Assembly (NCBI GenBank): GCA_040902515.1
Contig: JBBDXB010000006.1
Location: 404,763-468,762, forward strand
From: Patescibacteria group bacterium
GTDB lineage: Bacteria > Patescibacteriota > SICC01
Direction of reading: 5' to 3'
DNA: 64,000 nucleotides
The notes beneath the pieces were generated by a model. It was given only the letters and a program-made list of their open reading frames with translations, was not told the DNA's origin and did not search any database. The stretch's first letter is position 1, and each line of letters begins with the position of its first letter. Shown here piece after piece: positions 4,482 through 53,505 of the stretch. Position numbers and translations under genes: made by a program.

Positions 4482-5821
4482 TTCGAAGGTACCCCGTAGG
4501 TTTTCTTGGCGATATCAAGCTCATGCTTCCCACGTTCACTATCCTTGGCACTGAGGTGCGGTGCCTGTTTGTGGGCGTGTCTCCGTCGGGTCTGGGATGC
4601 GGCGCCCTGGTAATGGTTGACGAAACTATCCGCGATCAATCGCCAATCGAAACGTTCCTCGACGAGGCGTCGGGCTTCTGTGGACATACGTGTCCGCAAC
4701 TGCCCATCGGCAAGCAGCTTGTTAACCGCGCGGGCTATGGCAGCCCCGCTTCTAGCCCGGACCAGGAATCCGTTCTGGCCGTGCTTTACTACCGACCCGA
4801 TCCCACCCCGCTTGCTGGCCACGACCGGCGTGCCGCTGGACATCGCCTCAAGGGTGATCAGCCCGAGCGGCTCATCCCATACGGAAGGAACCACCATGAC
4901 GTCCGCGCGCCGATAGAACTCCGCCAGGGCTTCTCCTTTGACGTATCCGGGAAAGTGGACATGGGGATTCCGAGATGCCTGCTGCATAAGCCGTTTCCGT
5001 TCGGGGCCGTCACCCAGAACGAATACTTCCGCTTGCATCTGCCTTGCCGCGCGGATGAGATAGGTAACACCCTTGGTCGGTATCAATTTTCCCGTGAAAA
5101 GGACGACTTTCTTCCCCCTCAATCCGTACTGTCGTTCGACCCGGTGTGCCGGTCCATGCGCCGGGAATGCACGTGAGTCCACCCCGCCGGTGATCGTCCG
5201 GACTTTCGAGGTAAAGTCCTTTCCATAAACCCTGAACATCCATTTCCTTGTCTGCCCCGATACCACGCTGATCATGTCGGCGTGGTTAAGGGCGTCAATG
5301 GTCGGGACGACGAATCTGCGATCGAGGGTCGCGTTATAGACGTCCGTGCCATGTACCGTGACGAGATAGTTGATCCGATAGACGGCCCGGCAATAGTTGG
5401 CAATCCATGCCGTGTGGGCCGCGTGGTGGGCGTGAATGACGTCCGGCTCGAACGTTTCCACGGCCCTGGTGAATCCCCGGAGAAACGCCTGGTACATCTC
5501 ATTGATCTGGTCGGCCCGTAGTTCCGAATAACGTTTTGCGTGGGGATGTTCGGGATGGCTGGTGAAAGCTGCCATGAAAGGAAGGTCGACGTGGAATATC
5601 CGTACGCCCGGTACCCGCCGCCGGTCGGGGCAGGCGATCGCGATCTCGTACCCCTTGCGTGCCAAGGATTGGGCTAACTCTCTTGCATACACGCCGCTAC
5701 CCGAGCCCCACAGGGGATACATCAGGAACATCAGGATACGTGGCTTGCGTATGCGTGCGCCCATCGCAGTCAGTGTACTTGAAACAGCCCCCACTCTGCC
5801 CGAACCTTGACTGTTAGACAC
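4478..5821 (-). CDS. Glycosyltransferase family 4 with an N-terminal extension.
   Basis: DEPLGLITLEAMSSGTPVVASKRGGIGSVVKHGQNGFLVRA. The stop overlaps the start of the downstream GT4 gene (ATGA-type junction). The exact start (first ATG versus internal ATGs) is uncertain. Confidence 0.75.
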   Translation of the reverse strand: MSNSQGSGRVGAVSSTLTAMGARIRKPRILMFLMYPLWGSGSGVYARELAQSLARKGYEIAIACPDRRRVPGVRIFHVDLPFMAAFTSHPEHPHAKRYSELRADQINEMYQAFLRGFTRAVETFEPDVIHAHHAAHTAWIANYCRAVYRINYLVTVHGTDVYNATLDRRFVVPTIDALNHADMISVVSGQTRKWMFRVYGKDFTSKVRTITGGVDSRAFPAHGPAHRVERQYGLRGKKVVLFTGKLIPTKGVTYLIRAARQMQAEVFVLGDGPERKRLMQQASRNPHVHFPGYVKGEALAEFYRRADVMVVPSVWDEPLGLITLEAMSSGTPVVASKRGGIGSVVKHGQNGFLVRARSGAAIARAVNKLLADGQLRTRMSTEARRLVEERFDWRLIADSFVNHYQGAASQTRRRHAHKQAPHLSAKDSERGKHELDIAKKTYGVPSK

Positions 5822-5844
5822 TTTTGTGTTATGGTTAAGCGATT

Positions 5845-6855
5845 TTGAAATCTATGAGCAAATATCCCTCAGAGCTGCGCCGCGATTTACTCAGCAACCG
5901 CTGGGTGATGATCGCCGCCGGCCGGGCCAACCGCCCGAACGACTGGAAGAAGCCGTTCGTGAAGAACGACCGGCTTGACCCGTTCCGTCCGGAGAACATC
6001 CGTCCCGAAGACGTCGTGGACAAGGTGGCGAACACGGACGGCACGAAGTACGCCGTGGAAAGCGATTGGAAGGCGCTGGCGATCATCAACCGGTACCCGC
6101 TGGTCGGCAGTACGGGCCGCCCCCGGCTCTCCGGTGAGGCCGTCGACGGGTACGGGTATCACGAGATCGTAATCCACTCGCCTGACTCAGACAAGGATTT
6201 CGGGGAATTCCCGGAAGGGCAGGCCCAGGCGGTGATCGAGCTGTATCTCAAGCGATACAACCACCTCGCCCATCGGCCTCACATCCAGCATGTGCAGATC
6301 TTCACCAACCGCGGTCCGGAGGCCGGAGGCTCGATCGAGCATCCGCACAGCCAAGTCGTGGCGTTGCCGGTCGTGCCGCCTTACGTGCAGGAGCTGGTGG
6401 ATAACGCCCGCCGCCGGCACGACGAGGAAAAGCGGCTCGCCAGTGAGGATGAACTCGAGAAAGAGACGCACGATGCCGCGCGGATCATCTACGAGAACTC
6501 CCACTTCCTGGTGTACTGCCCGTTCGCACCCCACGCGGACTACCACATCCGGATCATGCCGAAGCATCCGGGATCCCGTTTCTTCGAGATCACCCAGGAC
6601 CAGCTGGAGCATCTTGCCCGGGTGATGAACCTGGCGCATCGTCGTCTCGACCGGATCGCCGGGCTGCCGCCCTATAACTCATACATCCGGACGGCGCCGG
6701 CGCATTTGCCCGAAAAAGAACTGCGCGGATTCCGCTGGCACATAGACATCCTGCCGCATCTCGCGACGCCGGGCGGCCTGGAACTCGCCACGGGCATCGA
6801 CGTGGTAACCGTGTCACCGGAGAACGCGGCGCATGCCCTGAGACAGGATTCATGA
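5845..6855 (+). CDS. GalT-family (HIT-like) hexose-1-phosphate uridylyltransferase or ADP-glucose phosphorylase-type nucleotidyltransferase.
   Basis: The HxH active-site motif sits in FTNRGPEAGGSIEHPHSQVVALP (His-Pro-His as in GalT class I). Size is ~336 aa. Located in the sugar gene cluster. Confidence 0.7.
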   Translation: MKSMSKYPSELRRDLLSNRWVMIAAGRANRPNDWKKPFVKNDRLDPFRPENIRPEDVVDKVANTDGTKYAVESDWKALAIINRYPLVGSTGRPRLSGEAVDGYGYHEIVIHSPDSDKDFGEFPEGQAQAVIELYLKRYNHLAHRPHIQHVQIFTNRGPEAGGSIEHPHSQVVALPVVPPYVQELVDNARRRHDEEKRLASEDELEKETHDAARIIYENSHFLVYCPFAPHADYHIRIMPKHPGSRFFEITQDQLEHLARVMNLAHRRLDRIAGLPPYNSYIRTAPAHLPEKELRGFRWHIDILPHLATPGGLELATGIDVVTVSPENAAHALRQDS

Positions 6856-8472: not shown

Positions 8473-8572
8473 GTCCCGTCCATTGTACCGCAGCGGCCGC
8501 GGCCTGACGGTGGTTGACGCCGGACGGTAATTGTGGTATGGTTGTCTAATTTTTGAATAGACCCAACCCGAC

Positions 8573-25030: not shown

Positions 25031-25059
25031 TTGACAAAACCACTTAACGGTGGTATCAT
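25031..25059 (+). promoter_or_regulatory. Consensus sigma-70-type promoter TTGACA-N17-TATCAT embedded in two overlapping inverted repeats.
   Basis: TTGACA at 25031-25036 and TATCAT at 25054-25059, about 30 nt upstream of the GTG of the 1267-aa ORF. GTGGTT-GACAA-AACCAC and ACCAC-TTAACG-GTGGT flank and overlap the -35. Confidence 0.5.
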
Positions 25060-25089
25060 CACATAATTTACAAAATCAAAAGAAAACAC

Positions 25090-31721: not shown

Positions 31722-31827
31722 GGACGTTTGCCTCCGCGCTACCCGACCCTTGACGGACGGGCGTTTTTATGCTACAGTGAGGTAATTTTCCTGGGATCAA
31801 CCCGGAAGGTTATACACACAAACATCC

Positions 31828-50858: not shown

Positions 50859-51506
50859 ATGGCCGTACGGAAACTCTTCTTCGATATAGAAACGGTGCCC
50901 GCCCCGAAGGCGCTGGAGCCCAAGTTGCGCGAGCTGTATACGCTCAAGCAGCAGAAGGCCGCGGCGAATAACGGAAAGTCCCAGAGCTTCAAGGCGTTCG
51001 TGGCAAACACCAGCTTCGACGGCGCGTTCGGGCGGATCTGCTGTCTGGCGTACGCCGTGGACGACGGTCCGGTGGGGGTGCTGGCGGGCGGTGAACGGGA
51101 AGTCCTGGAAAAGTTCTGGGAGCAGGCGACGCCGGGAACGCGGTTCGTCGGCCACAACATCTTCGACTTCGACCTGCCGTTCGTCCTCAAGCGATCGCGG
51201 ATCCTCGGCGTGCGGCCGTCGGTGATGCCGAGCATGGCCCGGTACCGGAGCCACCCCGTCTACGACACCATGCACGAATGGACCGGCTGGGGCCGCCATG
51301 GCACGTCGCTGCATGCGCTTTCGGTCGCGTTCGGCCTGCCGACCTCGAAGGACGACATCGACGGCTCGCAGGTGGCCGGCTACTACGCGGACGGCCGCCT
51401 CCCGGAGATCGCGGAGTACTGCAAGAAGGACGTGGAGCTCACGCGGCAGGTCTACAAGAGGCTCACGTTCGACGACACGATTCCCGAGCCCAGCTTCGGG
51501 CGTTAA
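50859..51506 (+). CDS. PolB-like 3'-5' exonuclease (RNase H-like fold, DEDD-type).
   Basis: LFFDIETVP...ICCLAYAV...FVGHNIFDFDLPFV...YCKKDVELT. Exo I/II/III-like motifs. Confidence 0.65.
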   Translation: MAVRKLFFDIETVPAPKALEPKLRELYTLKQQKAAANNGKSQSFKAFVANTSFDGAFGRICCLAYAVDDGPVGVLAGGEREVLEKFWEQATPGTRFVGHNIFDFDLPFVLKRSRILGVRPSVMPSMARYRSHPVYDTMHEWTGWGRHGTSLHALSVAFGLPTSKDDIDGSQVAGYYADGRLPEIAEYCKKDVELTRQVYKRLTFDDTIPEPSFGR

Positions 51507-51602
51507 CGCTCGAAGGGCCGGGGCCTATTCGTTGCTTGCCCGCCGGTGCGCGGGCTATACTCGGGACGATGACACAAACACGCAGGGAAGGGGGTGATAC
51601 GC

Positions 51603-51977
51603 ATGGTTAAGACTTACGCAACCGTACTTGGTGCGGTATTCGTCCTGCTCGGCATCCTCGGCTTCATCTCGCCGCTGAATCCGGACGGGAACCTCTTCGG
51701 CATCTTCCATGTCGACGTGGCACACAACGTGGTACATCTGATTTCCGGCCTCGCGGTGCTCGGCGCCGTCCTGGCAGGCGGCGTGTACCCACGCCTCGCG
51801 GCGCAGGTGATCGGCCTGGTGTACGGCGTCATCGCCGTCCTGGGCTTCCTGGTCGGCCAAGGAGTCGTCCTGGGCTTCCTGGAGGTGAACGTGGCGGACA
51901 ACGCCCTGTACGCCGTGATCGCGCTGTCGGCGCTGTACGCGGGCTTCATGCCCGAAGCCGAGCCCGCACGGAAGTAG
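51603..51977 (+). CDS. DUF4383-family small membrane protein.
   Basis: MVKTYATVLGAVFVLLGILGFI...HVDVAHNVVHLISGL. 4 TM. A TTGCTT-N18-TATACT promoter-like element lies at 51535-51564. Confidence 0.6.
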   Translation: MVKTYATVLGAVFVLLGILGFISPLNPDGNLFGIFHVDVAHNVVHLISGLAVLGAVLAGGVYPRLAAQVIGLVYGVIAVLGFLVGQGVVLGFLEVNVADNALYAVIALSALYAGFMPEAEPARK

Positions 51978-51996
51978 GCTCTCCCGTCTTCGTAAG

Positions 51997-52023
51997 AAAA
52001 CCCCGTAAGCGTGCGGGGTTTTC
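51997..52023 (+). terminator. Rho-independent terminator AAAACCCCG-taagcgtg-CGGGGTTTT, then CACTTTCT.
   Basis: Read from the sequence. Flanked by A4 and T4, so potentially bidirectional. Confidence 0.55.
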
Positions 52024-52359
52024 ACTTTCTGTCGCCGGTGGCTGTGGATTCAAGCATCGGGAAAACTGTCAATATTGCCTGTTTTTGGCTCAATGAGGTT
52101 ATTCTTGTATTTCGCAGCGCATACTTCATCCACAGCTGGAAAAGCAGGCAACCTAAGATATGGGGAGGAGACGAGCCCGTTTTCGCGATTCGTGCCTGGA
52201 ACCCTCGTATTCAGGCGTCATCTTGAGCAACTATACCTTTGTTGTGCGAGTTTTTTGCGTTTCTTGACAGCTCCGGGACCTGTGCTAAAGTTTGCACTCG
52301 TGTGCAACAGAGCACACGTTTTTTATTAGTAATGCGTAATCACGGAGGTTACTCCATCC

Positions 52360-52845
52360 ATGAAACCCATTCGACCAAAGAAGATGCTTTCAAACGCTGG
52401 CCGCGCCGGCGCGGTGATGGCTGCCGTGGTCCTGAGCCTTGGCTCGACCGGCGCGGACGCCGTCCGGGGGGGCACGTTTATCGCGACGGCACCGTCGCTT
52501 GATCCGGACCCGATCATCTCGGATAGCGTGGACCCGATCGTCGAGCAGCGGGTCGTCAAGGTCGAGCCGACCCCGCCGCCGGCTCCGGTCGTGACCCAGC
52601 AGGTACAACGAAGCTCAGGCGGCGGCAGCTGTTCCCTGGGCGATATCAAGCGCATGGAGTCGGGCGGTGACTATCGCGCCCAGAATCCCGTCAGTACGGC
52701 CTCAGGCGCGTATCAGGTGCTGAACGGTACCTGGGGAGGTTACGGTGGCTATAGCCGCGCCGGAGACGCTCCTCCGGAGGTCCAGGACAAGTTTGCGCGG
52801 GAACTGTACGCCAAGCACGGTTCGCAGCCGTGGGTGGTCTGCTAG
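52360..52845 (+). CDS. Secreted Rpf-like transglycosylase-domain protein (resuscitation-promoting-factor family).
   Basis: Signal peptide. IKRMESGGDYRAQNPVSTASGAYQVLNGTWGGYGG...AKHGSQPWVVC matches the Rpf/transglycosylase-like core. GGAGGT RBS. Confidence 0.7.
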   Translation: MKPIRPKKMLSNAGRAGAVMAAVVLSLGSTGADAVRGGTFIATAPSLDPDPIISDSVDPIVEQRVVKVEPTPPPAPVVTQQVQRSSGGGSCSLGDIKRMESGGDYRAQNPVSTASGAYQVLNGTWGGYGGYSRAGDAPPEVQDKFARELYAKHGSQPWVVC

Positions 52846-52871
52846 GCGCTCGGAGCGTACGACAGAAACAG

Positions 52872-52900
52872 GAAAACCGCCCCGCGAGGGCGGTTTTCTG
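52872..52900 (+). terminator. Rho-independent terminator AAAACCGCCC-cgcga-GGGCGGTTTTCT.
   Basis: Perfect 7-bp GC stem plus U-tract, 27 nt after the rpf-like stop. Confidence 0.6.
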
Positions 52901-53022
52901 ATTCCCTTTCGACCTGAGCTTCCCAGGTCTCGTCAGTCGCTATGCGAGAGGGTCGGGGGCGGCAGGCAATGGAGATGTGAAATCTCGCATATACCTGCCG
53001 GAATCCCCCTATGTGTGCTTCG

Positions 53023-53505
53023 TCAGGCGGTGACCGGAACCTTCGGGCCCTCGCTGTTGAGCGTGCCCAGCACGCTGCGAATCTGTCGCAGGGTGACCTG
53101 GTGCCGTTGCAGCCGGGTGATCCGCTTCGTCAGCTTGAGGCGCTGGTCGAAGTCCTTGGTCTTCCTGAGCTCCTGCTGCGCCTCGTGGATCTTGCCGATG
53201 GTCGCGAGGAACATGCGCGGTGCCGTCACGTGGAGAGCCCAGTCAGCGACCATGTCGCTGGTGACCTTGGGACGCCCCGCCGCGAAGGCCTCCAACGCCT
53301 TCTCGAGGTCCCGGATGGTCACCATGGAGAACGTCTCGTCCTTCATGAACATGACCAAGACGGCGTTGATCGCCCCGCGGGCCGCCCCTTGCACGTAGTG
53401 GTGCGGCTGCTCCACGTACGCCGCGGCGATCGCCCCCTTCAGGGTCTGGTGCATCGTCATGTACTCTCCATGCTGCATCCTGCGCTTGTGACGGCTGGAC
53501 GCCAT
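53023..53505 (-). CDS. Hypothetical 160-aa protein with a C-terminal coiled coil.
   Basis: Perfect RBS AAGGAGGAAG 5 nt before ATG 53505. Protein-like composition. The plus-strand ORF 53011-53661 is its low-complexity antisense. A minus-strand TTGATT-N17-TATAAA promoter lies at 53655-53683. Confidence 0.55.
   Translation of the reverse strand: MASSRHKRRMQHGEYMTMHQTLKGAIAAAYVEQPHHYVQGAARGAINAVLVMFMKDETFSMVTIRDLEKALEAFAAGRPKVTSDMVADWALHVTAPRMFLATIGKIHEAQQELRKTKDFDQRLKLTKRITRLQRHQVTLRQIRSVLGTLNSEGPKVPVTA

Follow-up and report, generated by a model that had tools for sequence, protein, structure and literature searches.

In a stretch of 64,000 nucleotides (nt) from a Patescibacteria group bacterium (contig JBBDXB010000006.1 of assembly GCA_040902515.1), referred to below as the window, a gene for a secreted Rpf-like transglycosylase is preceded by a 336-nt spacer (52024-52359). 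The spacer was originally predicted to be a low-GC leader RNA with mutually exclusive hairpins, a candidate riboswitch or attenuator. The low G+C content (GC) was confirmed, at 47.6% against 64.2% for the whole window, and the spacer does lie between terminators, the upstream one having been found just behind the DUF4383 gene (Table 1). Comparison with orthologous loci, nevertheless, points to a different arrangement: the Rpf-like gene has its own sigma-70-type promoter, and transcription most likely begins at the foot of a terminator-like hairpin; the low GC would then be the ordinary look of promoter-upstream DNA in a GC-rich genome. The label of the downstream gene is correct, because its product contains a PF06737 domain (E = 5e-11; 43.5 bits against a Pfam cut-off of 27) and aligns with its best solved relatives, Mycobacterium tuberculosis RpfE (PDB 4cge) and RpfC (2n5z), over a span that includes the catalytic ESGG. 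Furthermore, E100 of the protein is unchanged across 14 homologs.

Table 1. Features of the Rpf-like locus, in coordinates of the window (UTR, untranslated region; SD, Shine-Dalgarno sequence; aa, amino acids).
Feature	Position	Strand	Details
DUF4383 gene (Pfam)	51594-51977		Upstream neighbour of the spacer
Intrinsic terminator of the DUF4383 gene	51996-52023	+	12-pair stem, then T-rich tail
Conserved DNA block TGTCAA...GGCT...TTT...TCCACA	52067-52134		Neither open reading frame nor structured RNA
DnaA-box-like 9-mer TCATCCACA	52126-52134	+	TCCACA core 52129-52134; 8/9 matches to TTATCCACA
A/T-rich tract, UP-element-like	52245-52263	+	T6 at 52251-52256; T- or A-tract here in every ortholog
Predicted sigma-70-type promoter	52264-52291	+	-35 TTGACA 52264-52269; 16-nt spacer; TG 52283-52284; -10 TAAAGT 52286-52291
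Alternative hairpin TTGCAC-tcgt-GTGCAA	52292-52307	+	Unsupported as anti-terminator
Predicted start zone	52296-52300	+	Canonical +1 = 52298, 7th nt past the -10 hexamer; from promoter geometry
Terminator-like stem-loop	52299-52324	+	CGTGTGC 52299-52305 / GCACACG 52312-52318; loop AACAGA; T6 52319-52324
Rest of 5' UTR	52325-52359	+	SD GGAGG 52344-52348; ATG at 52360
Secreted Rpf-like transglycosylase gene	52360-52845	+	161 aa; signal peptide, linker, PF06737 at residues 95-161
Terminator of the Rpf-like gene	52871-52899	+	Bidirectional hairpin; from terminator scan

Ten unique orthologous spacers were compared, namely that of the window and those of loci L003, L004, L005, L006, L008, L009, L012, L013 and L025. 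The orthologous proteins share 47-93% identity with that of the window, and most of the loci keep the order DUF4383, long spacer, transglycosylase. The spacers measure ~295-570 nt in the relatives and have diverged beyond recognition over most of the alignment; the promoter and the hairpin that follows it form the outstanding conserved block. A promoter scan found a single promoter-like site in 51400-53200, with 10 of 12 hexamer matches and the TG of an extended -10. The -35 hexamer TTGACA occurs in all ten spacers, while the -10 reads TAAAGT in nine orthologs and TATAGT in L025, so that TAnAGT and the TG extension are common to all. The hexamers are separated by exactly 16 nt in every case, and only four of these 16 columns are invariant, three of them in the GTG just upstream of the -10. 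The site thus has what defines an extended -10 sigma-70 promoter, near-consensus hexamers at a spacing of 16-18 nt and TG at -15/-14. Since the hexamers and the spacer length are fixed and the spacer sequence is free, TTGACA-N16-TGnTAAAGT, as judged from the alignment, is the best-conserved element of the spacer and shows the pattern typical of a functional sigma-70 promoter. The A/T-rich tract upstream of the -35 presumably acts as an UP element.

The TTGACA-N16-TAAAGT element had been noticed in the original prediction and passed over in favour of an upstream promoter. Its conservation in 10/10 spacers reverses this preference, and inspection of the spacer alignments by eye revealed no conserved promoter farther upstream. 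Because this promoter is the most conserved element and has a working footprint, the transcript most likely starts at the hairpin base, and the promoter and start site can be placed as in Table 1 with high confidence. A start at ~52298 leaves a 5' UTR of ~62 nt, and the ~270 nt of the proposed leader that lie upstream of it are probably not transcribed.

Other genes in the window are preceded at short distance by similar sites, TTGACn-N17-TGnTAnnnT, and the organism therefore uses this promoter type. Four such promoter-like sites on the + strand (5807-5850, 8514-8560, 25031-25075 and 31750-31795) carry TAATTT or GATTTT 4-6 nt after the -10, which may be a conserved start-site or initially transcribed motif of the genome; the promoter of the Rpf-like gene is without such a motif.

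The stem-loop beside the promoter has a folding energy of -11.2 kcal/mol (z = -3.5), and one of 200 shuffled sequences folds as well. Its stem CGTGTGC/GCACACG, of 7 base pairs (bp) with five G-C pairs, is kept in all ten unique orthologs, with energies from -9.5 to -11.4 kcal/mol, and is followed directly by T5-T7 in every one, apart from a single spacer G in L025. The loop varies both in sequence and in length (5-7 nt). In L006 the closing C-G pair is lost and an inner U-A pair is gained from the loop; compensatory double changes in the stem were not found in the ortholog alignment. In 10/10 orthologs exactly 7 nt separate the -10 from the stem base, including L025, in which the 7-mer is TCTCTCT instead of TTGCACT. 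With the 5' end where it is predicted, this would agree with the 0-3 nt that separate a 5'-terminal stem-loop from the end of its RNA. In its G+C-rich stem, its loop within 3-8 nt and its run of at least five U within 0-2 nt of the stem, the element has the anatomy of an intrinsic terminator, and perfect sites of the hairpin-plus-T-run kind are rare, three on both strands of the 64% GC window, one of the others being a gene-end terminator. The positions given in the original prediction for both hairpins, their GTGC overlap, the T6, the GGAGG, the ATG and the promoter hexamers all proved accurate.

The promoter-hairpin motif has no second copy in the 64-kb window and is found once per orthologous locus, and no regulon is seen in these data. 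A scan of the JGI metagenome proteins returned no additional orthologs. A DNA pattern scan with TAAAGTNNGCAYTCGTGTGC gave nine loci, all of them chance matches without the 3' arm and the promoter, and a scan of IMG/VR for the hairpin gave two chance matches, both within coding sequence. A 5'-proximal hairpin with a U-run was also considered as a general trait of the strong promoters of the genome and was rejected.

The predicted switch depended on the overlap of two hairpins, the alternative hairpin sharing GTGC (52302-52305) with the terminator-like stem. Alone, the alternative hairpin reaches -7.4 kcal/mol, which is weak against chance (7 of 200 shuffles are as good), and the terminator-like hairpin wins in every fold in which both can form. 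In the relatives it is reduced to GCAC/GTGC (4 bp) in nine orthologs, with a fifth pair in six of the nine, and it is missing in L025. Its 5' arm (52292-52297) coincides with -6 to -1 of the conserved promoter. Since this arm precedes the predicted start and is lost in L025, these transcripts would have no RNA switch by mutually exclusive hairpins. Blocking either hairpin arm in silico did not bring out a conserved alternative pairing.

Searches for known RNA families gave the same picture. Run over all 64,000 nt at gathering score, an Rfam cmscan detected RNase P and two tRNAs, outside this locus, and nothing else; a permissive scan (E<=10) of 51900-52500 returned only look-alikes of the DUF4383 terminator (51996-52023) plus noise; and the nine orthologous loci gave only tRNAs at gathering score. 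The ydaO-yuaA riboswitch (RF00379), the class favoured in the original prediction, had no match in the window, in 51900-52500 at E<=10 or in the nine orthologous loci, and the stretch GGGGAGGAG...CCCG that had been held suggestive of it lies at 52162-52179 rather than at 52142-52160. Among the features of a switch-type attenuator, a terminator hairpin with a U-tract upstream of the gene was found, and a conserved anti-terminator pairing and a conserved structured sensor domain were both absent. On these comparisons the locus holds no riboswitch, of the ydaO or another class; an aptamer would have no room, and an alternative fold is not conserved.

The expectation of a ydaO element was taken from Actinobacteria. 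An identical Rpf-like protein is encoded on NCBI assembly GCA_040903945.1, the orthologs are annotated as Patescibacteria group bacteria, and among 185,579 species genomes the sole match to the protein is a Candidatus Saccharimonadia metagenome-assembled genome. The genome is thus that of a high-GC member of the Saccharimonadia/Patescibacteria, within the candidate phyla radiation (CPR), not of an actinobacterium, and the actinobacterial precedent is therefore an analogy only and a poor guide. The window stands at 64% GC although its relatives are Saccharimonadia/Patescibacteria, which usually have low to moderate GC.

The part of the spacer that precedes the promoter, 52024-52263, is probably promoter-upstream DNA with short conserved motifs, not leader RNA. 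Its main feature is the TGTCAA...TCCACA block. The TCCACA core is found in 10/10 spacers, and in eight it precedes the -35 by 132-139 nt; TGTCAA stands 61-62 nt further upstream in seven lineages and is absent in L009, L012 and L025. No reading frame in the block is conserved, with stops or frameshifts in L006, L008 and L013, which bears out the earlier view that the spacer contains no credible coding frame. A small open reading frame (ORF) on the minus strand of the block, coding-like between the window and L003, was discarded as it is broken in L006, L008 and L013. A structured RNA was likewise rejected for want of a consensus structure, the consensus fold of the block reaching -0.84 kcal/mol with no covariation. 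Of the two comparative checks suggested in advance, that for covariation thus came out negative, neither the upstream block nor the stem showing compensatory change, and that for conservation was divided: the upstream ~270 nt keep only short DNA motifs, and the promoter and the terminator-like hairpin are kept in all ten spacers.

The TGTCAA...TCCACA block is a probable protein-binding DNA, possibly a transcription-factor or DnaA site for the Rpf-like gene. Taken with its flanks, the DnaA-like core reads TTCTCCACA in several other orthologs, and L025 (563-574) has a perfect TTATCCACA. The window contains five such 9-mers with at most one mismatch against 4.1 expected, and the locus has a single box; because the count is at chance, the DnaA assignment is a tentative lead. 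A minus-strand promoter using TTGACA, the complement of TGTCAA, was rejected, as visual inspection of the window and of L003 showed no acceptable -10. In L009, to which L010 is identical, the DUF4383 gene is missing and the spacer extends to 570 nt; its segment from the TCCACA box to the promoter holds GCCTGGCTAA(C/T) repeated in tandem as well as ACCACGAAAA repeats (2200-2380).

Downstream of the hairpin, the 5' UTR is A/U-rich, and its total length, counted from the predicted start, ranges over 59-79 nt in the relatives. A weak hairpin surrounds the SD and AUG (52340-52365), pairing GGAG (52344-52347) with CUCC (52352-52355) and UCA (52340-52342) with UGA (52361-63). It is found in most orthologs, and five lineages extend it by UUUCA/UGAAA. 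The translation-initiation region folds at -8.6 kcal/mol; against 66 crude gene starts of the window, with correction for GC, this deviates from the mean by 0.5 standard deviations (sd; residual -0.5 sd). This hairpin was given little weight as a translational switch, its stability being not unusual for the genome. In L008 (region 1136-1171), the true start of the ortholog P0008 probably precedes the called ATG at 1169: a GTG 33 nt upstream of that ATG aligns with the ATG of all the other orthologs, stands behind the conserved AAGGAGG and would restore the conserved N-terminus MKTIP.

A model is proposed in which the Rpf-like gene would be driven by its own strong sigma-70-type promoter, with transcription starting at ~52298, at the base of the 7-bp hairpin. 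The first ~27 nt of the mRNA would then carry the full anatomy of an intrinsic terminator, and the hairpin and U-tract would stop a fraction of the polymerases at ~+27, thereby throttling the near-consensus promoter of a potentially self-lytic enzyme. The level of read-through would be set by kinetics, that is by nucleoside triphosphate (NTP) level, temperature and elongation factors, or by a trans-acting factor, and not by an RNA switch. The transcripts that read through would keep a paired 5' end and be shielded from 5'-end-dependent decay. Both roles are proposed, with attenuation as the primary one, since the U-tract fits termination or pausing and the fixed +1/+2 position fits a role at the 5' end. 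There is precedent for each: attenuation in the 5' UTR is documented for rpfB, and Rpf-type enzymes are tightly controlled as potential cell lysers (PMC6009663), while RppH requires at least two unpaired 5' nt and 5'-terminal stem-loops stabilise mRNAs (PMC3997798). That the hairpin attenuates transcription is put forward tentatively, as a reasonable possibility short of a probable one. From the attenuator of the original prediction, the terminator-like hairpin, present in 10/10 spacers, has thus been retained and attenuation is still the leading idea; the sensor or switch form has lost its support.

Several points weigh against this model. Start site, termination and read-through alike are predictions, and the ten unique sequences come from a single clade. 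A plain terminator needs neither a fixed distance from the promoter nor an invariant stem. Terminators of the DUF4383 type occur in most of the orthologous loci but differ in stem sequence, and in lineages with freely diverged DUF4383 terminators and promoter spacers the 14 stem bases of the hairpin are identical, with no compensatory change; an extra, sequence-specific constraint beyond termination is therefore indicated. If damping were the sole need, a weaker promoter would suffice, and efficient termination merely ~27 nt from the start is an assumption.

The fixed spacing between the -10 and the stem would also be explained if the stem-loop were a 5' stabiliser only, which blocks the entry of RppH and RNase J/E with little or no termination, the U-rich and A/U-rich tract behind the stem being then a ribosome-standby site or an S1-type translation enhancer. 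The spacing, held at 7 nt even where the 7-mer itself differs, places the stem at +1/+2, as a 5' stabiliser by definition requires (PMC3997798), and A/U-richness extends over the entire UTR in a genome of 64% GC. However, a stabiliser has no need of the U5-U7 abutting the stem, yet these are kept in 10/10 orthologs while the rest of the UTR varies; the anatomy passes the terminator scan; and the invariance of the stem sequence is left equally unexplained. A stabiliser alone is thus a serious but rather unlikely account. The constant distance from the -10, the invariant stem with variable loops and the conserved U-tract, together with the lack of room for an RNA sensor, would be expected as well of a minimal attenuator free of any sensor, in which an NTP-dependent choice of the start within 52298-52302 alters the completeness of the stem, or a protein specific for single-stranded RNA attaches to the invariant 5' arm (CUCGUGUGC) and keeps the hairpin from forming. 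NTP-sensitive start-site switching at pyrC and attenuation at pyrG are analogies for such a device. If real, it would tie the output of an Rpf-like muralytic enzyme to the nucleotide or growth state of Saccharimonadia, which are thought to be episymbionts of Actinobacteria. The proposal is purely inferential, though, and the initial sequence is not homopolymeric; no candidate binding protein is encoded nearby, and the motif stands at no other gene in the sequences compared. This version appears improbable.

The same bases could be conserved as DNA, the inverted repeat CGTGTGC-N6-GCACACG (TGTGc-N6-gCACA core, CRP/FNR-like) being a repressor or activator site over +1. Both half-sites are invariant and hold a fixed position relative to the promoter, an extra GCAC-N4-GTGC dyad at 52294-52305 is found in 9/10 orthologs, and CRP-family control of rpfA in mycobacteria provides an analogy. 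Nevertheless, the half-sites are 5, 6 or 7 bp apart among the orthologs, unlike the fixed spacing of CRP/FNR sites (TGTGA-N6-TCACA), and in L006 one half-site has a changed outer base that is made up for in the loop, by which the hairpin is kept and the dyad is not. Because the spacing varies by 2 bp and L006 keeps pairing rather than sequence, a dimeric operator is quite improbable; the adjacent T-run would be unexplained as well, and the 64 kb hold no second copy. The long leader of the original prediction deserves the least credence and is very improbable. In that scheme, a ~330-nt RNA would start from a promoter near 52030-52110, and an aptamer, ydaO-like or new, would choose between the hairpins at 52292-52307 and 52299-52324. 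Both hairpins are indeed present and overlap in the window sequence, a long spacer is retained in the relatives, and actinobacterial genes for Rpf and cell-wall hydrolases lie behind ydaO or other RNA switches (PMC9960051, PMC6009663). But relaxing the threshold to E<=10 still yields no Rfam match; outside TGTCAA and TCCACA the upstream ~270 nt lack conservation, with no consensus structure or covariation; the fold of the whole region attains only z = -1.9; and no conserved upstream promoter is evident by eye. The anti-terminator arm is unconserved and absent in L025, and the promoter and hairpin persist in L009, L012 and L025 although a large part of the upstream block is missing there.

In the wider neighbourhood, the gene order Band_7, 39-aa ORF, 142-aa ORF, PolB-type exonuclease, DUF4383, Rpf-like gene is kept between the window and L003. 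Outside the orthologs, the C-terminal Rpf-like domain has its nearest relatives, with 67-81% domain identity, in L014 (gene 2501-2965) and L015 (gene 1026-1493), in tightly packed phage-like clusters with WhiB and a DNA methylase. This suggests exchange of the Rpf-like domain between actinophages or Actinobacteria and Saccharimonadia. P0014 and P0018 were considered as distant orthologous loci and rejected for their phage-like contexts.

For the reading preferred here, a sigma-70-type promoter followed at once by an attenuating and possibly protective hairpin, the significance is twofold. A false lead is removed, as the locus is not a riboswitch for cyclic di-AMP (c-di-AMP) or another ligand, nor is the 330-nt spacer of low GC a leader RNA, and one of few comparative footprints of a promoter and 5' UTR is provided for a CPR (Saccharimonadia) gene. 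If the hairpin attenuates, it would be a very compact restraint (~27 nt), free of any sensor, on a potentially lytic enzyme, and the invariant stem sequence hints at a sequence-specific partner.

Compared with known systems, the promoter resembles other extended -10/UP-element sigma-70 promoters in its TTGACA, 16-nt spacer, TG-n-TAAAGT and A/T tract at about -40 to -55, and differs from the usual ones in that conservation runs on through the discriminator (9/10 orthologs) into the transcribed hairpin. With the ydaO-yuaA elements (RF00379) before actinobacterial rpfA and hydrolase genes (PMC9960051), the locus has in common only the class of the downstream gene and a terminator-like hairpin; here their covariance model has no match in the window or the orthologs, and the would-be aptamer region is unconserved and lies upstream of the conserved promoter. 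Conditional terminators are defined by a two-structure architecture (PMC5314783), which is lacking here. The 5' stabilising stem-loops of ompA, papA and Bacillus subtilis aprE/ermC (PMC3997798) are closer, with a stable hairpin that leaves no more than 1-3 unpaired nt at the predicted 5' end, then a single-stranded A/U-rich segment and a ribosome-binding site; those stabilisers, however, are not defined by an adjacent U5-U7, and the start here is a predicted one. The 5'-UTR terminators obtained by 3'-end mapping, as in Escherichia coli (PMC7815308), and the attenuator of M. tuberculosis rpfB (PMC6009663) also place a G+C-rich hairpin and U-tract between promoter and start codon, and rpfB likewise encodes an Rpf-type muralytic enzyme that needs restraint. 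In contrast to these, the hairpin described here begins at ~+2, with no upstream RNA for an anti-terminator or sensor, its stem is invariant rather than covarying, and its host belongs to the Saccharimonadia (CPR). In conclusion, the element, a promoter joined to a hairpin or terminator at the 5' end, is ordinary in kind; what is unusual is its location, at +2, and the phylum is an under-studied one.

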